Of a stretch of 32,000 nt of DNA, positions 17,540 through 23,473 are shown piece after piece (position 1 is the stretch's first letter; every line of letters begins with the position of its first letter). This DNA comes from Candidatus Heimdallarchaeota archaeon (lineage in GTDB: Archaea; Asgardarchaeota; Heimdallarchaeia; Heimdallarchaeales; Kariarchaeaceae). The notes below the pieces were generated by a model, which saw only the letters and a list, made by a program, of their open reading frames with translations, did no database searches and was not told the origin of the DNA. The translations under genes and the position numbers were made by a program. The stretch spans positions 270,001-302,000 of the forward strand of contig JASBSB010000001.1 in assembly GCA_030149205.1 (NCBI GenBank). The letters run 5' to 3'.

Positions 17540-19324
17540 TTATTGCCCCTGTCGTTTGAACCATGATTCTAACTTTGAATGAGATATCCGAATAATCGTT
17601 GGTCTACCATGAGCACATGTCCAAGGAGAATTGCACTTAAGCAAATTTGAAAGAATTTCAGCAACTTTTCGTTCACTTACAGGGTATCCAGACCTAACTG
17701 CTCCATGACAAGCCAATCGAGATACAACACGATATTCAATTGCATTAAACTTGGAAGAGATCTCAATATTCGTGTCTGCAGTTAGAAAATCGTTAATCAA
17801 TTTATGAAGACTATCTTTGTCAAGTCTTTGGTCATAATACACAGGAACTCCATGTATCAATATTGTTGAGGTTAAGTGCTGAATACTGTATTGAAATCCA
17901 AACTTTTGAAACGTGTCCTGAAGTTCAACTAAAAGATCTAGTTCTCCTGAATTGATTGATACGGAAACTGGTTTAAGGAAGGTCTGTGACATTACTAGAC
18001 TTTCTCGATGTTCTTGATATCTCTCAAATTTGACTCTCTCATCTGATGCATGAACATCCATCAACCAAAGTTCAGAGTCTTTTTCAATTAATGCGAATTT
18101 ATTAAAAATATGTCCTAAAACTCTAAAACCTCCTTGAACAAAAACCGCCCTTGTGTGGTTGACCGAATTATTTTGAGGTGTTATCTCCTCCAAAGAAGTT
18201 TGTACAAATGATTCTCCTGGAATAACCTCTTTTGTAGAAATTAAAGGTTCATAACCTTCTTGTAAATCTATTTCTGCATTAGAAACATTTGGAGCTTTCT
18301 TATGAGGTAACTGCTGTATTTCAGATTTTTCTACCAAGGTTTCTTGAACCAATGTAGAGATTTCGTGAAAAATTGGGTCATCCTCCCTAAATCTTACCTC
18401 CAGTTTCTGTGGATGTATATTATAGTCAACAAGATTGTAATCTCCCTTCAATGATAAGATTATTACAGGGTAATTGCTTTTCAATAATTGGGACCCATAA
18501 GCTCGTTCGATTTGAGTTACCAATTCTGTATTCCTAATCAATCTACCGTTTATACTTAGATACTGAAATTTTCGGTCTTTTCTTACAAGAATGGGTTTAG
18601 AGATATACCCTGTTATTTTCCAATATCCTACATTGCCTCTGATTGGTACTAATCCTGAGGTGATTTCTGGACCAAAAACATCAAACAATACTGCTAAAAG
18701 CTCTTTTCTGGTTGGACTCTCCAATACGCTTGACACTGTATTCCCCTTCCTTTCACCTACTGTGAAATGAATATCTGGGTAGGTTAAACAGAAATGTGTC
18801 ATCACAGTTAAGATGTGTCTCTTCTCTGTAGCAACTGATTTTAAAAATTTTCTCCTAGCAGGATAGTTATGAAATAATCCACTTATCTCAATTCTGGTTC
18901 CTTTGCTCATTCTTACCTGGTTTTGAGAGATAATTCGCAGATTTTCCATTATGAGCTCACTGCCAAATTCTTCTGACTCAACCTTTGATCGTATTTTGAC
19001 ACGAGAAACACTTCCAATCGATGAAAGTGCTTCTCCTCTAAACCCTAGGGTTGAAACATTATGAATATTATCTTGAGTAATTTTACTTGATGTATGAAGT
19101 TCAAATGCAAGTTTTAATTCTCCTGGCTGTATTCCTTCACCATTATCCTCAACAATCATCCTGTCAATGCCACCATTCTCCAGAATAACCGCAATTTTTG
19201 AAGCATGGGCATCAATGGAATTTTCAACCAACTCTTTTACCGCATCGGCTGGACGAGTAATTACCTCACCAGCTGCGATTTGCCTTATTATTTCTTCTGG
19301 AATTAGATGGATCTTATTTGCCAT
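17540..19324 (-). CDS. mutL: DNA mismatch repair protein MutL (endonuclease-motif type)
   Basis: IAAGEVITRP, VKELVENSIDA, DNGEGI, TLGFRGEALSSI, YNIHPQKLEVRF; CTD motifs DVHASDERVKFE, ACHGA, CAHGRP, WFKR. Start ATG 19324 has GGTGA 8 nt upstream and overlaps the mutS 3' end. Confidence 0.97.
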   Translation of the reverse strand: MANKIHLIPEEIIRQIAAGEVITRPADAVKELVENSIDAHASKIAVILENGGIDRMIVEDNGEGIQPGELKLAFELHTSSKITQDNIHNVSTLGFRGEALSSIGSVSRVKIRSKVESEEFGSELIMENLRIISQNQVRMSKGTRIEISGLFHNYPARRKFLKSVATEKRHILTVMTHFCLTYPDIHFTVGERKGNTVSSVLESPTRKELLAVLFDVFGPEITSGLVPIRGNVGYWKITGYISKPILVRKDRKFQYLSINGRLIRNTELVTQIERAYGSQLLKSNYPVIILSLKGDYNLVDYNIHPQKLEVRFREDDPIFHEISTLVQETLVEKSEIQQLPHKKAPNVSNAEIDLQEGYEPLISTKEVIPGESFVQTSLEEITPQNNSVNHTRAVFVQGGFRVLGHIFNKFALIEKDSELWLMDVHASDERVKFERYQEHRESLVMSQTFLKPVSVSINSGELDLLVELQDTFQKFGFQYSIQHLTSTILIHGVPVYYDQRLDKDSLHKLINDFLTADTNIEISSKFNAIEYRVVSRLACHGAVRSGYPVSERKVAEILSNLLKCNSPWTCAHGRPTIIRISHSKLESWFKRQGQ

Positions 19325-22067
19325 TGGGGGTTTCACCTAAGAGTGACTTCAGGTCATTTAATATTTCTAACGCTTTTAATGGTGTGATATTGTCAAGGGA
19401 AAGGTGAGATAGAGTTGCTAATATTTCGAGTTCTTCTGGTGACCTGAGTAATACATCCTTTTTATGTTTGGAAACTCTTTTCTTTTCAACTAAGGGTCGG
19501 CCTAGGCTTGATCCACCAAAAAAATCGACCAGGGATCCTTGTTTTTCCTGTTCTTCAGACACTCGTATGACCTGAGATGCAAATGATTCTGATTTTTCTG
19601 TTGGAATAACAGAGACTGATTGATTCTCCATTTGGTGCAAAAGAAATCTTGCACGAAGAATGATCTCTTTAGGTATTCCTGCTAGTTTTGCTACTTCTAC
19701 CCCAAAACTCTTGTCAGAGGAACCCTTAAAGAGAAGATGGTCAAAAATTGGTTTTTCACCATCAAAGTGTATTTGAAAATGAAAGTTCATACATCTATCT
19801 AAATACCCTTCCAAATCAGCTAATTGATGATAATGAGTGGCAATCATTGTGAGTGGACGGTTTTGGTGATTGTGGAGAAATTCTGCCAAAGACCATGCGA
19901 TTGCCAAACCATCATAAGTTGATGTCCCTCGTCCAATTTCGTCTGCAATTATTAGAGATTGTGAGGTACAATTATTCACCATATTAGCAACATCAAGCAT
20001 CTCAACAAGGAATGTGCTTTGCCCTGCGATTAGGTTATCTGAAGCTCCAATTCGGGTGAAAATTCTGTCAAATATTCCCAGTCGAGCCTTTTTAGCTGGA
20101 ACAAACATACCAATCTGAGACAATATACTGATCAATGCTAACATCCGGAGCAGTGAGCTCTTTCCACTAAAGTTTGGACCCGTGATAATGAGTAGTGTTT
20201 GCGATTTCTTATCCATGAAAATATCATTGGGTACATACCTCCCACCATCCAAAAAGGTCTCGATTATGGGATGCCTTCCCTGTTCAATATAAACTTCAGT
20301 CTTATTACTGAGCTCTGGTTTTACATAAGCATTTGTGAGTGAAATATATGAAAAAGTGGATAAAACGTCCAACTCTGATATTATCGATGACAATTCCTGT
20401 AGTCTGCTAACATGCTTTGACAAAGAGCTTAGAAGATTATTATAGAGCTCTTCCTCCAATTGGATTATTTCTATCTCAGCGTTTAATATATCATTTTCCC
20501 AATCCTTGAGTTCATCAGTAACAAATCTGACGGCATTTACCATTGCCTGTCTCCGGATATAGTTTGATGGAACATTATTTTCGTTCTTCCTTGTGACTTC
20601 GATATAGTAACCAAGTTGTCTGTTTTGTTTTATTTTTAAACTTGTAATTCCGGTTTGCTCTATTTGACTTTCCTTGTATCTCTCTATCCATTTTTCCCCT
20701 TCACTTAACACTTGAACCAGACTAGCTAATCGATCGTTAATGTTTTGATTAATGACTCTACCCTCTGATGGTGAACTTGCTGGATTATTCACGAGATATT
20801 TTTCTATCATCGTTTGAATATCTAAGCAAGTGTCAAACTTTGGCAGATAATTATCAAGACACTTGTAAGTTGTACTATGTGACTCCAGAATTTCTAATAA
20901 TTCTGGTGTCCGGCTCAAACTCATAGATAGTTGAATCAGCTCTTTGGGTTTAGCGATTCCTAAGGAGATACGTGTAGAAATCCTCTCTATATCTGCCATA
21001 TGAGTCAATAGATTACGGGTCTTATGTTGAATAATCTCTTCTTTGATAAAAAATTCCACCAATAAGTGTCTAGTCTCAATCTCTTTACTATTTAATAGTG
21101 GACTGTGAATCCATTTTCTGAGTCTACGCCCACCCATAGGAGTACAAGTTTTATCCAGCAAACCAACTAGTGTACCATATTCTGTTTTATCTTGATTATT
21201 TTCAAACAGCTCCAAACTTTTAATTGCTGTTCTGTTTAAATTCATGTGAACTTCAGGTTTAATCAGCTGAATTTTAGAGATATTAGATAACTCTCTCATC
21301 TGAGTCTCTTCAAGGTATCTGAGTAAGGCTCCTGAACTCCCAACTACCTCTGAATCAACCTTTATTCCATATCCTTCAAGTGATTTTACTTGAAAATGAG
21401 TTGTTAAAAGTTCATTTGCTTCAGTGTAATTAAACCAAAAGTCGGCACGAAGTGTTAATGTTTCATTTTCATCTAGTTTTCTACCCAACAACAACTTCAA
21501 GGAATTTTCAAGTGAATCTGGGACTAAGTACTCAACCGGTGAGTACCTATCAATGATAGTATGGAGATTTTCGAAATCATTTTCCTCCAGATTTTTAACC
21601 ATAAACTCCCCACACGATAAATCGGCTAAAGAAACACCAATTTCTTTTGTTGTCGAGTTCCAACTAAGTGAACAAATATAATTGTTTTTTCCCGAGGTCA
21701 GTAACTCCTCCTCCACAAGTGTACCACGTGTTACCACTCGAGTGATACCTCTTTTAACAACCCCCTTAACAGATTTCGGATCCTCTAGTTGGTCTGCAAT
21801 AGCAACTTTGTAGCCTTTGTTAACCAGTCTACCGATGTAAGAATCAACACTCCGAAAAGGTACCCCTGCAAGCGGATGATCACCATCCCCTAGAGACCTG
21901 GAGGTTAAGACAATATCTAACTCCTTTGAACCAACAACAGCATCCTCATAGAATAGTTCATAAAAATCCCCAACCCTGCAAAAGAGAATTACGTCTTCAC
22001 CTAGCTCTTTTTTCATCTGAACCCATTGCTTCATCATAGGTGTAGTTCCGATCTTATCGTAATCCAT
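19314..22067 (-). CDS. mutS: DNA mismatch repair protein MutS (MutS1, bacterial type) with C-terminal PIP box
   Basis: TPMMKQW, RVGDFYELFYEDA (mismatch-binding Phe-x-Glu), ITGPNFSGKSS, RIFTRIGASDNL, STFLVEM, DEIGRGTSTYDG, ATHYHQL, SFGVEVAKLAGIP; ATG 22067 preferred over TTG 22070. Confidence 0.97.
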   Translation of the reverse strand: MDYDKIGTTPMMKQWVQMKKELGEDVILFCRVGDFYELFYEDAVVGSKELDIVLTSRSLGDGDHPLAGVPFRSVDSYIGRLVNKGYKVAIADQLEDPKSVKGVVKRGITRVVTRGTLVEEELLTSGKNNYICSLSWNSTTKEIGVSLADLSCGEFMVKNLEENDFENLHTIIDRYSPVEYLVPDSLENSLKLLLGRKLDENETLTLRADFWFNYTEANELLTTHFQVKSLEGYGIKVDSEVVGSSGALLRYLEETQMRELSNISKIQLIKPEVHMNLNRTAIKSLELFENNQDKTEYGTLVGLLDKTCTPMGGRRLRKWIHSPLLNSKEIETRHLLVEFFIKEEIIQHKTRNLLTHMADIERISTRISLGIAKPKELIQLSMSLSRTPELLEILESHSTTYKCLDNYLPKFDTCLDIQTMIEKYLVNNPASSPSEGRVINQNINDRLASLVQVLSEGEKWIERYKESQIEQTGITSLKIKQNRQLGYYIEVTRKNENNVPSNYIRRQAMVNAVRFVTDELKDWENDILNAEIEIIQLEEELYNNLLSSLSKHVSRLQELSSIISELDVLSTFSYISLTNAYVKPELSNKTEVYIEQGRHPIIETFLDGGRYVPNDIFMDKKSQTLLIITGPNFSGKSSLLRMLALISILSQIGMFVPAKKARLGIFDRIFTRIGASDNLIAGQSTFLVEMLDVANMVNNCTSQSLIIADEIGRGTSTYDGLAIAWSLAEFLHNHQNRPLTMIATHYHQLADLEGYLDRCMNFHFQIHFDGEKPIFDHLLFKGSSDKSFGVEVAKLAGIPKEIILRARFLLHQMENQSVSVIPTEKSESFASQVIRVSEEQEKQGSLVDFFGGSSLGRPLVEKKRVSKHKKDVLLRSPEELEILATLSHLSLDNITPLKALEILNDLKSLLGETPNGK

Positions 22068-22130
22068 CAATAAATGAACTAGATTAGGGTGTATTTAATT
22101 AATTTCTATAGAAAATCGTTTTCTGTGAAC

Positions 22131-23066
22131 TTAAAACCATTCATCAAGTGAGAATTGACTTTCGACCTGAGCATTATTAATGAATTCAATTTCGCAACCA
22201 ATGAGTTCTTTTGTATTTAATGTGTAATAATAGTTCCCAGATTTTATGATCAACAGTGCTCCCTTAATCGCAACTATCTTCCCTCCTGCCTCTTTATTTG
22301 GTGATAGGTCAAAGTGTTGAACATAACTTGGGATCTCACCAAGATTTCCAAAATATTCCTCTAAATAAATAATATCCGGATTCTCAAATACTTTACCCTG
22401 AATGTGTTTTTCATTTTGAACCCCTTTTGCAATGGACAAAGCTTCCTCCACTAACTTTCTGAATTCATCAGAATTAAAATTTTCCAGTTTCAAGTTTGAT
22501 CTTTTCTTTTTTGATGAAACCTGTAATTTTACTGGTAATGCCCTGTTAACCTCTTGTTCCACTGCTCTTGCTTCTAGTCCGGGTAGCAGAGCAATTTTCG
22601 TGGCAACATCACTTCCCTGTTCAAGCCATCTTCTTTTTACAGAGAGTGAAACCCCTACTTTATCTATTCCAGCAATGTTTGTTACATATACTGCGGTGTT
22701 GGGAGGTGTACAAAGTTCCTTTGCCCTTGGTGATGAAGGATTACAGATGACTCCAGTACAAGTAGATCTACAGAGAAAAAAATCAGATCGAACACATAGC
22801 AAACATCTATGGTTTCTGACTGAAGGGTTTGTTTTGTAAGTTTCTGATTTTTCTGAACTGTGCATCTGGTTTTGAATACAGGATCTATATTTTCCTTTTT
22901 CTACCTCTCCCCCGATACAAAGCCCTTTGTTAAGTACTCTAATCTGGATTTCATCACCAATCTTAATTTCCTTTCGAGTTATATCTCCAGACACTGTATC
23001 AGAATAGATTAAAAAAGTTTGAACTGGGTTTGGTTGCCATTGCAGCTTAATAAACAGATAACTCAT
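22131..23066 (-). CDS. DUF2797-like protein: Cys-rich region plus GIY-YIG-like module and C-terminal PIP box
   Basis: Eight Cys in the N-half; VYVT...KVGVS...RRWLEQG...A...GLEARAVEQ; C-terminal KIVAIKGALL strand; ends QFSLDEWF*. Confidence 0.8.
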   Translation of the reverse strand: MSYLFIKLQWQPNPVQTFLIYSDTVSGDITRKEIKIGDEIQIRVLNKGLCIGGEVEKGKYRSCIQNQMHSSEKSETYKTNPSVRNHRCLLCVRSDFFLCRSTCTGVICNPSSPRAKELCTPPNTAVYVTNIAGIDKVGVSLSVKRRWLEQGSDVATKIALLPGLEARAVEQEVNRALPVKLQVSSKKKRSNLKLENFNSDEFRKLVEEALSIAKGVQNEKHIQGKVFENPDIIYLEEYFGNLGEIPSYVQHFDLSPNKEAGGKIVAIKGALLIIKSGNYYYTLNTKELIGCEIEFINNAQVESQFSLDEWF

Positions 23067-23071
23067 TTATA

Positions 23072-23473
23072 TTATCTAATTCTATCTTGACTTGTTAAAG
23101 CATTCGTTATTAGTTCTGAGAGTTCTAGATCTAGGTAAGTGTCATTAAGCTGTGCTTTAAAGGCTTCATTCACCACTGATTTATCAACATAGGGTGTTAG
23201 AGTCTCTACAAGTTGTTTTTTCACAAAATTGTTTGTTTCCACCTTCATACGATCTAAGAGGTCAGGAATTACTGATTCTAGATCTATCCAACTCAAACTT
23301 TGAACTGCCACTACTCGTACCAAGTAGTAAGTATCATTAAGCGCCAACAGTAGAGGAGGGACACACTCCTTTGTTCTTATCCTTCCAAGCCTTTGAACCG
23401 CTTTTACTCTCCTCTCCGGTGAACCATAAGACAATATCTCGATATTCTCCTGGAGTTCCTTAGAAAGAGCCAT
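23072..23473 (-). CDS. HEAT-repeat (PBS lyase-like) protein
   Basis: ERRVKAVQRLGRI..VPPLLLALND.YYLVRVVAVQSLSWI..VIPDLLD..NFVKKQLVETL; stop is 5 bp from the DUF2797 start. Confidence 0.85.
   Translation of the reverse strand: MALSKELQENIEILSYGSPERRVKAVQRLGRIRTKECVPPLLLALNDTYYLVRVVAVQSLSWIDLESVIPDLLDRMKVETNNFVKKQLVETLTPYVDKSVVNEAFKAQLNDTYLDLELSELITNALTSQDRIR

Follow-up and report, generated by a model that had tools for sequence, protein, structure and literature searches.

Mismatch repair systems without MutH, such as those of Bacillus subtilis and Thermus and the eukaryotic MutLalpha, combine a MutS1 sensor that carries a Phe-x-Glu motif with an endonuclease-type MutL, which is recognised by the motifs DQHA(X)2E(X)4E and CPHGRP together with the clamp motif Q-x-x-L-x-P. 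To our knowledge, a GIY-YIG-like partner does not belong to any described MutSL system. Furthermore, nuclear mismatch repair has been proposed to derive from Asgard-like MutS and MutL (PMC7884376).

Regarding the sliding clamp, archaeal Fen1, RNase HII and EndoMS/NucS have flexible tails that end in the motif Q-x-x-L-x-x-aromatic-aromatic. The GIY-YIG proteins, among them Slx1 and HIGLE, the N-terminal domain of UvrC, I-TevI and YhbQ/UPF0213, have in common the residue order Tyr...Gly...Arg...Glu. In UvrC and I-TevI the spacing from this Gly to this Arg is 8 residues, and in Slx1 a zinc finger follows the nuclease domain. As to the family of domain of unknown function DUF2797, a Zn ribbon was noted in it (PMC9425974), and the same cryptic GIY-YIG-like fold that we describe below has already been reported, independently, in a preprint of October 2026 (10.64898/2026.10.10.758204). 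A clamp-binding C-terminus is nowhere mentioned in the published work that a literature search by the name DUF2797 returned.

The locus analysed here lies in a window of 32,000 nucleotides from a Candidatus Heimdallarchaeota archaeon of the Kariarchaeaceae (contig JASBSB010000001.1, positions 270,001 to 302,000), and its features are collected in Table 1. An earlier note on this DNA had described four co-oriented genes, encoding a HEAT-repeat protein, a DUF2797 protein, MutS and MutL, separated by short gaps or overlapping, with PIP boxes in two of them. The open reading frames, all four on the minus strand and at the same coordinates, and the family matches agree with this description. The gap between the HEAT and DUF2797 genes is 5 nt, and that between DUF2797 and mutS is 60 nt if it is counted to a TTG codon of mutS or 63 nt if it is counted to the ATG at 22067, which is the probable start. 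The overlap of mutS and mutL is 23 nt with a GTG start of mutL and 11 nt with the ATG at 19324, which again is the probable start.

Table 1. Features of the HEAT-DUF2797-mutS-mutL locus, in positions of the window
Feature	Position	Strand	Basis
HEAT-repeat protein, 133 aa	23072..23473	-	PF13646 HEAT_2, E 9.7e-12
DUF2797 protein, 311 aa	22131..23066	-	PF10977, 39.8 bits
DUF2797 Cys cluster (C50, C63, C88, C91, C99, C103, C108, C119)	22710..22919	-	conservation
DUF2797 GIY-YIG-like core, residues ~121-220	22407..22706	-	invariant columns and structural matches
DUF2797 C-terminal PIP box QFSLDEWF, residues 304-311	22134..22157	-	motif position; abuts the stop codon
DUF2797-mutS spacer with TATA-like box (22093-22102)	22071..22130	-	sequence reading
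mutS, MutS1 type	19314..22070	-	MutS domains I-V; NCBIfam PRK05399
MutS C-terminal linker PIP box QGSLVDFF, residues 844-851	19518..19541	-	motif
mutL, endonuclease type	17540..19336	-	domains; TIGR00585; overlaps the mutS stop

The explanation that we favour is that mutS and mutL are a canonical and self-sufficient pair, that DUF2797 is probably a PCNA-tethered nuclease, and that the upstream neighbours stand there by inherited gene order, without a demonstrable shared function. We consider this explanation, taken as a whole and with the lack of a functional link between DUF2797 and MutSL as one of its parts, reasonably probable.

MutS contains all five domains (I-V; 901 bits against PRK05399), with the mismatch-binding GDFYELF, which includes the Phe-x-Glu of the MutS1 sensors, at residues 34-40 and the Walker A sequence GPNFSGKS at residues 631-638. 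MutL has the domains HATPase_c_3, DNA_mis_repair and MutL_C (424 bits against TIGR00585). Its C-terminal domain carries the endonuclease motif DVHASDERVKFE at residues 427-438, of the type DQHA(X)2E(X)4E, the clamp motif QTFLKP (Q-x-x-L-x-P) at 451-456, ACHGAVRSG at 542-550 and CAHGRP, of the type C(P/A)HGRP, at 574-579. The set of endonuclease and clamp motifs of MutL is complete, and the protein belongs to the clamp-activated type. In this pair MutS would recognise the mismatch and MutL, as a clamp-activated endonuclease, would make the nick. The overlap of the two genes is a further likeness to the MutH-less systems, whereas the eukaryote/archaeal-style PIP box of MutS is found where those systems use a beta-clamp motif. 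This linker motif reads Q-x-S-L-x-x-W-F in 4 of the 6 relatives examined from the window's own family (f1) and is a Q-less WF in the other 2; QTSLE-L, QTNLF or QTSFF occupies the same site in other Asgard families. Judging from these motifs, it was in family f1 that MutS gained its canonical PIP box of the WF type, which resembles the one of DUF2797.

The end of DUF2797 matches the PIP pattern Q-x-x-[LIM]-x-x-[FYW]-[FYW] and is exposed and flexible: in the AlphaFold2 model of the protein (pLDDT 93, pTM 0.90) the pLDDT falls to 67-68 over the last residues, compared with 97 before them. Each of the 20 orthologues checked across the order has kept the motif at its very C-terminus, and PIP-type tails were also found in the families f6, f10 and f27. 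The same genome encodes a Fen1 ending in QTSLDSFF and an RNase HII ending in TSLDNFF, in the same style as the QFSLDEWF of DUF2797. Furthermore, when PCNA was modelled together with residues 278-311 of DUF2797, the complex scored 0.67 versus 0.02 for the best of 3 controls; of 80 solved complexes 58 attain the mark, as do 2 of 110 mismatched pairs. Contacts agreed between runs to at least 85%, and the partner pLDDT was at least 47. The predicted interface brings DUF2797 residues 301-311 against residues 44-48, 126-133, 235-236 and 253-259 of PCNA, which in the model form the classical PIP pocket, the one that Fen1 and RNase HII also use. PIP-PCNA complexes have already been solved and therefore the pass of the model may reflect memory. 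Tail conservation, the Fen1 and RNase HII ends of the genome and the complex model together suggest that PCNA very probably has a client in DUF2797. Its catalytic fold is unrelated to those of Fen1 (FEN), RNase HII (RNase H) and EndoMS/NucS (PD-(D/E)xK).

The family as a whole shows the same tendency. Among 119 diverged representatives, 62 ended in a clamp motif by regular expression (39 canonical PIP, 9 short PIP and 14 QxxLF), where shuffled tails lead one to expect about 1 and internal control windows gave 0-1. These classes cluster on a tree that was built without the tails (17 changes versus 48 in shuffles): in the Asgard clades the proteins carry a terminal PIP box, and in other clades the terminal motif is QxxLF, of the type known for the bacterial beta-clamp. 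The QxxLF-type members that were checked have bacterial genes around them (Mur ligases, MraY, S20, peptide deformylase), and such members also occur in a bacterial phylum with genomes of roughly 1 Mb, presumably Patescibacteria. In the bacterial phylum of genome G253, DUF2797 was found in only 4 of 151 genomes. From these sequences, tethering to the clamp seems to characterise the DUF2797 family as a whole.

As regards the rest of the protein, the match to PF10977 covers residues 115-292 and lies above the cut-off of 25 bits, and 140 homologues were found among 1.84 billion representatives. Among the control genomes, that of Haloferax volcanii also gave a PF10977 match. In the model, N-terminal and C-terminal strands together build a beta-barrel, which would be SH3/Tudor-like and has the GIY-YIG-like core inserted between its two halves; a Cys cluster and the terminal PIP box complete the protein. 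All eight cysteines are invariant in 19 order-level orthologues, and for C50, C63, C88 and C91 the conservation among the 119 family representatives is 90% or higher. The cluster probably forms two metal sites, for Zn or Fe-S, and 4 to 8 of the cysteines would bind the metal. In the core, Y127, K136, G138, R146, Q150 and E170 are invariant across the same 119 sequences, and four of them (Y127, G138, R146 and E170) would correspond to members of the catalytic set of GIY-YIG nucleases, in the order common to that group. The second Tyr of that set, the one of YIG, is replaced by the invariant K136. The G-to-R spacing is 8 residues.

In VIA-align comparisons, where a Z under 8 may reflect a common arrangement, the best matches of the core were Slx1 and HIGLE (Z 5.2-5.8, 86-103 residues aligned, rmsd 2.8-4.0), specifically Slx1 6seh_C (Z 5.6, 93 aligned, rmsd 3.4), 7cq2_A (Z 5.5-5.7) and HIGLE 7wme_A (Z 5.2-5.8, 86 aligned, rmsd 2.8), with unrelated structures following at Z 4.8 and below and I-TevI at Z 3.4-3.7. 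DUF2797 also resembles the Slx1-like proteins in having an alpha/beta core beside a putative Zn-binding element. The other searches gave little: a Foldseek search of the PDB returned nothing at E 0.001 or below, the structural search of AFDB Swiss-Prot gave weak YhbQ/UPF0213 rows, a Pfam scan of the core up to E 10 found no family of the GIY-YIG clan, and a profile search against PDB sequences yielded nothing meaningful. With hhalign, local alignments of UvrC and of YhbQ-like proteins gave no significant score (E 0.02-0.18, probability at most 2%), although the register of the match agrees. Thus, DUF2797 differs from the GIY-YIG nucleases in having no sequence-profile link to them, in Lys136 at the place of the YIG Tyr, in a shorter distance from Arg to Glu, in the insertion of the core between barrel halves, in the eight cysteines upstream of the core and in the clamp-binding type of tail. 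Longer, fused forms of DUF2797 were not found, which is weak evidence. A defence-system or phage reading was ruled out, as there was no PADLOC or PHROGs match.

The core looks GIY-YIG-like in the model, by a modest structural match with Z below 6, and DUF2797 is a probable nuclease. The earlier note had taken it for a clamp-coupled nuclease, and the retained terminal PIP box, the GIY-YIG-like matches, the invariant Tyr/Gly/Arg/Glu and the Cys cluster all speak in favour of a protein of this kind.

One could also accept the clamp and reject the nuclease, so that the core would act on another substrate (RNA, nucleotides or modified bases) or the protein would serve as an adaptor. The modest structural match and the Lys at the second catalytic Tyr fit this possibility, as do some neighbours of the orthologues, namely an RNase E/G-like gene and a class-V aminotransferase gene in f2 and a radical SAM enzyme in f10 and f27; the neighbour is RadA in f3 and a DHH/DHHA1 protein in f6. 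Nevertheless, we regard it as rather unlikely, given that the four catalytic-type residues and their G-to-R spacing are kept over such diverged sequences, that the known clients of PCNA and the beta-clamp act on DNA, and that another DUF2797 paralogue of this genome adjoins cas1, which is a DNA-processing context. If DUF2797 is the PCNA-tethered nuclease that we favour, its catalytic residues would be Tyr127, Arg146 and Glu170, the flexible PIP box would plug into the hydrophobic pocket of PCNA, and the protein, being tethered in this way, would work on the DNA of replication or repair forks, either at the fork or behind it.

The earlier note had proposed that the four genes form a repair module, and a survey of gene neighbourhoods had been named beforehand as a refuting test. 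Of the 12 f1 genomes, G000 among them, 9 have DUF2797 and mutS as neighbours, directly in 7 cases and with unrelated genes between them in 2. The adjacency was absent from the listed genomes of f2, f3, f4, f6, f10 and f27, which are the six other Asgard families possessing a PIP-bearing DUF2797 orthologue; there the two genes lie on separate contigs or 105 kb, 136 kb or 1.58 Mb apart. HEAT orthologues stand upstream of DUF2797 throughout f1, and in sister genera the cluster is interrupted by pfkB, SnoaL, TPR and VTT genes; four of these genera (g2, g3, g4 and g6) have the pfkB kinase gene between HEAT and DUF2797. DUF2797 is therefore rarely found beside mutSL outside one family, and even there the cluster admits unrelated genes, so that a conserved module finds no support. 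However, the HEAT-DUF2797-mutS-mutL order is kept across at least 6 genera in which protein identity is only 37-57%. It has thus outlasted much neutral synteny, and this counts against the inherited gene order of our own explanation. The WF-type PIP box of MutS in f1 and the co-occurrence with MutS1 described below also count against that explanation.

The TATA-like sequence that had been pointed out before mutS is there (TTAATTAAAT at 22102-22093, 25 nt before the ATG), and all 5 relatives inspected have a TTTAA-type A/T box some 25-40 nt ahead of the start of mutS. It is possibly the own promoter of mutS, and its conservation argues for a separate promoter. The spacer between DUF2797 and mutS contains no long T-run terminator and therefore read-through into mutS is possible.

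We also examined the co-occurrence of DUF2797 with MutS. PIP- or QxxLF-type DUF2797 was found alongside MutS1 in all 7 Asgard families in the samples searched, and in the bacterial phylum with genomes of about 1 Mb MutS1 is present in 3 of the 4 DUF2797-positive genomes versus 32 of 151 overall. As the Asgard families amount to some three independent lineages and the bacteria to a single phylum, this co-occurrence is statistically weak. In the exception, G308, DUF2797 is only partial. Tail-less paralogues occur in the MutS-less families f22, f11 and f18 and in a Woesearchaeote. MutS without a DUF2797 orthologue is found in f13 (MutS in 52 of 54 genomes, the orthologue in 0 of 54), in genus g35, whose genomes are 96-99% complete, and in the complete genome G015.

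These data bear on a narrower form of the repair hypothesis, according to which DUF2797, perhaps with the HEAT protein, is in family f1 an accessory clamp-loaded nuclease of MutSL, co-expressed with it and serving in nicking, excision or strand discrimination. The common strand, the short gaps and the order kept in most f1 genomes agree with it, and so do the WF-type PIP boxes on both DUF2797 and MutS of f1, the occurrence of clamp-motif DUF2797 in MutS1-bearing lineages of the samples searched, and the fact that a search of this genome (completeness 93.5%) did not find EndoMS/NucS. We consider it unlikely, however: six families with the orthologue lack the adjacency, unrelated genes interrupt the cluster, a conserved TATA-like box precedes mutS, MutL already has full endonuclease and clamp motifs, in many Asgard genomes MutSL was found and DUF2797 was not, and the co-occurrence with MutS1 is weak. 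Besides, the HEAT protein has no repair-related features; it gave no match to a repair-related family and only a marginal HEAT-ARM match in PADLOC (E 9e-4). A bolder version would make DUF2797 an ancient and so far unrecognised family of clamp-tethered GIY-YIG-like nucleases, with PIP in Archaea and QxxLF in Bacteria, that was recruited in the Kariarchaeaceae-like family as a third clamp-loaded nuclease together with the PIP-bearing MutS and MutL; we hold this to be quite unlikely. Finally, short linear motifs can arise by chance and clamp binding is here predicted, but that the PIP-like end and the clustering are coincidental and DUF2797 does not bind the clamp is very improbable in view of the position of the motif in every orthologue checked, its excess over expectation, the grouping of its classes by clade and the PCNA complex model.

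Thus, the four-gene repair module fails as a general system, and DUF2797 may have a lineage-specific role in repair. Asgard archaea serve as the reference for how mismatch repair arose in eukaryotes, and whether clamp-motif DUF2797 travels with MutS1 is now a testable question. The widespread DUF2797 family becomes a concrete and testable candidate: Zn- or Fe-binding, GIY-YIG-like and apparently clamp-tethered. Since clamp clients form a small group with a central place in replication and repair, a new family of them across both prokaryotic domains would, if true, be useful.

The four open reading frames of the cluster have the common orientation, the short gaps and the mutS/mutL overlap that the earlier note ascribed to them, as seen from the reading frames, family matches and coordinates. 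The HEAT and DUF2797 genes are 5 nt apart, the spacer between DUF2797 and mutS measures 60 nt if mutS starts at a TTG and 63 nt if it starts at the ATG at 22067, and the mutS and mutL frames overlap. Both PCNA-binding motifs (PIP boxes) claimed for the cluster are also present, one of them, QFSLDEWF, being the C-terminal end of DUF2797, immediately 5' of the stop codon, and the other lying in MutS. The host is an Asgard archaeon (genome G000, 3.3 Mb, 93.5% complete) and the window lies on its contig 4. The observation is confirmed, and the interpretation put on it is partly supported.

Features of the window and of a second DUF2797 locus in the same genome (L002, contig 8)
Feature	Coordinates	Strand	Size or residues	Basis
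Four-ORF cluster	17540-23473	minus		
HEAT-repeat protein		minus	133 aa	PF13646, E 9.7e-12
DUF2797 protein		minus	311 aa	PF10977, 39.8 bits against a cut-off of 25
MutS		minus		all five domains; NCBIfam MutS, 901 bits
MutL		minus		TIGR00585, 424 bits
PIP box of MutS	19518-19541		residues 844-851	QGSLVDFF
TTTAA-type box before mutS	22093-22110			
Second DUF2797 paralogue	L002:1306-2337	minus	344 aa	
cas1	L002:2626-3552	plus		PF01867, E 3e-21

Regarding the repair genes, MutS retains GDFYELF (mismatch binding) and the Walker A motif, and MutL retains the endonuclease motif DVHASDERVKFE, ACHGAVRSG, CAHGRP and the clamp motif QTFLKP. By these motifs both proteins are canonical and of the MutH-less, clamp-activated type. 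Such a system requires no additional nicking enzyme. We found no NucS/EndoMS in the 93.5% complete genome. Asgard-like genes have been proposed as the archaeal source of eukaryotic nuclear mismatch repair (PMC7884376). In the MutS C-terminal linker, a canonical WF/FF PIP box occurred only in f1, the window's own Kariarchaeaceae-like family (window, L023, L027, L028, L032 and L045-L050 compared); the same site reads QTSLE-L in family f10, QTNLF in f6, QTSFF in f13 and QVTLL in f2, and therefore the MutS clamp motif is lineage-dependent.

Among 1.84 billion representatives searched, 140 DUF2797 homologues were found, 119 of which were full-length representatives and were aligned. Y127, K136, G138, R146, Q150, E170 and G269 (numbering of the window's protein) are invariant among these 119 and C50, C63, C88 and C91 nearly so; all eight cysteines are invariant among orthologues of the taxonomic order. 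The structure, predicted with confidence by AlphaFold2 (pLDDT 93, pTM 0.90), has a barrel formed by N-terminal (1-61) and C-terminal (259-295) strands, with the cysteine-bearing region and an alpha/beta core inserted between its halves. In an exhaustive structural comparison the top three matches of the full model were GIY-YIG nucleases (Slx1 6seh_C, Z 5.6; 7cq2_A, Z 5.5; HIGLE 7wme_A, Z 5.2), I-TevI was the next of this kind (Z 3.4), and the core folded alone gave the same result (HIGLE 5.8, Slx1 5.7, I-TevI 3.7), these values being modest, with unrelated structures starting at about 4.8. The barrel weakly matches Tudor, BAH, Sm and KOW-like folds. Foldseek gave no match in the PDB and weak YhbQ/UPF0213 rows in AFDB Swiss-Prot, sequence-profile comparisons gave no connection to GIY-YIG families, and a non-significant hhalign alignment places VY onto (G)IY, KVG onto YIG and Arg onto Arg. 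A cryptic GIY-YIG-like fold of DUF2797, missed by Foldseek, is described in an independent October 2026 preprint (10.64898/2026.10.10.758204); an earlier paper noted a Zn ribbon as the sole feature (PMC9425974). We consider a GIY-YIG-like fold probable and a putative nuclease activity plausible. Neither fused forms of DUF2797 nor matching defence or phage families were found.

The tail Q-x-S-L-x-D/E-W/F-F, or a near variant, stands at most 3 residues from the C-terminus in 20 of 20 order-level orthologues. In G000, Fen1 (contig 4, L118) terminates in QTSLDSFFG and RNase HII (contig 2, L119) in TSLDNFF, which gives the consensus S-L-D-x-aromatic-F; therefore the DUF2797 tail follows the pattern that known PCNA clients have in this organism. 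G000 PCNA modelled in complex with DUF2797 residues 278-311 scored 0.67 versus 0.02 for the best of three controls. Of 80 solved complexes 58 attain that mark, as do 2 of 110 mismatched pairs; because PIP-PCNA complexes have already been solved, the pass indicates resemblance and may reflect structures memorised by the predictor. The runs shared at least 85% of contacts (partner pLDDT at least 47), and the modelled contacts join residues 301-311 to PCNA 44-48, 126-133, 235-236 and 253-259, the classical pocket. Among the 119 representatives, the PIP box is canonical in 39 tails and short in 9, and a further 14 end in Q-x-x-L-F, the bacterial beta-clamp type, against a chance level of about 1 in shuffled tails and 0-1 in internal control windows. 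When the tails are left out of tree building, these classes group by clade (17 changes versus 48 in shuffles); since taxonomy is known for only part of the representatives, spot checks support, but do not prove, a division into archaeal and bacterial types. Genes of the QxxLF type sit among those for Mur ligase, MraY, ribosomal S20 and peptide deformylase, and also occur in the phylum of genome G253 (genomes of about 1 Mb), which we take to be Patescibacteria. In the papers found on DUF2797 we saw no mention of a clamp motif.

Within f1 the order HEAT-DUF2797-mutS-mutL recurs over at least six genera at a protein identity of just 37-57%. DUF2797 and mutS are directly adjacent in G000-G003 and G006-G008, 0.9 kb apart in G010 (a VTT-domain membrane protein gene intervening) and 2.7 kb apart in G004 (SnoaL-like and TPR genes); the relation is lost in G009 and G011 and cut by a contig end in G005. 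A pfkB sugar kinase gene, on either strand, separates HEAT from DUF2797 in genera g2, g3, g4 and g6 (L025-L028, L030, L032); none lies there in the window. A TTTAA-type A/T-rich box stands 25-40 nt 5' of the mutS start in 5 of 5 inspected spacers (window, L023, L024, L025, L031), which is consistent with a separate archaeal mutS promoter, a possibility already raised from a TATA-like box, and suggests a leaderless or short-leader transcript.

Outside f1, PIP-bearing DUF2797 orthologues occur in families f2, f3, f4, f6, f10 and f27, and in the listed cases mutS never adjoins them but lies either on a separate contig or at a distance of 105 kb (G156), 136 kb (G154) or 1.58 Mb (G243, a complete genome). 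The neighbours vary: in f2 (L018-L022) an overlap joins DUF2797 to the end of an RNase E/G-like (FAU-1-like) gene, and a cysteine desulfurase-like class-V aminotransferase gene comes next, in f3 the neighbour is RadA, in f10 and f27 a tightly coupled radical SAM gene, and in f6 a divergent DHH/DHHA1 gene. MutS also occurs without a DUF2797 orthologue in f13 (52 of 54 genomes versus 0 of 54), f26, genus g35 of f10 (96-99% complete) and complete genome G015. This f1-only adjacency, the pfkB insertions, the varied neighbours, MutS without DUF2797 and the TTTAA-type boxes together refute a general HEAT-DUF2797-mutS-mutL repair module on the earlier note's own terms. As for DUF2797 being a clamp-loaded repair partner, the clamp-binding part is supported by the PIP tail and the PCNA docking model, and the general module with MutSL is not.

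In f10 and f27 the radical SAM and PIP-bearing DUF2797 genes continue tightly into two genes whose products, each about 280 aa long, show weak wHTH matches at best (L081, L083, L084, L085, L087), a conserved run that may form an operon of that Asgard class. The DHH/DHHA1 phosphoesterase gene is divergent in both f6 genomes examined (L086, L088), and a RecJ gene is divergent beside a QxxLF-type DUF2797 on a bacterial contig (L034); this is a possible recurring pairing.

A repair role of DUF2797 specific to certain lineages seems unlikely to us, and what would favour it is the f1 synteny at such low identity, the WF-type PIP box in MutS of most f1 members (full motif in 4 of 6 relatives, Q-less in 2 of 6) and the distribution of the tails. 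Clamp-motif DUF2797 was found in MutS1-bearing lineages in 7 of 7 Asgard families in the samples searched, and tail-less paralogues in the MutS-less families f22, f11 and f18 and a MutS-less Woesearchaeote. In the phylum of G253, DUF2797 occurs in 4 of 151 sampled genomes (G253, G381, G401 and G308, the last with a partial protein whose end is outside the tail reading), and MutS domain I in 3 of these 4, G308 being the exception, versus 32 of 151 overall (hypergeometric p ~0.03, ignoring kinship). Because they come from a small number of independent lineages, these co-occurrences are no more than suggestive. The second paralogue of G000 has a long unrelated tail without PIP box and is divergently adjoined by cas1.

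We favour the reading of a canonical mutS-mutL pair adjoining a probable PCNA-tethered, GIY-YIG-like, metal-binding enzyme, an adjacency probably inherited within one family. What merits follow-up is the occurrence of such putative clamp-binding tails throughout DUF2797.
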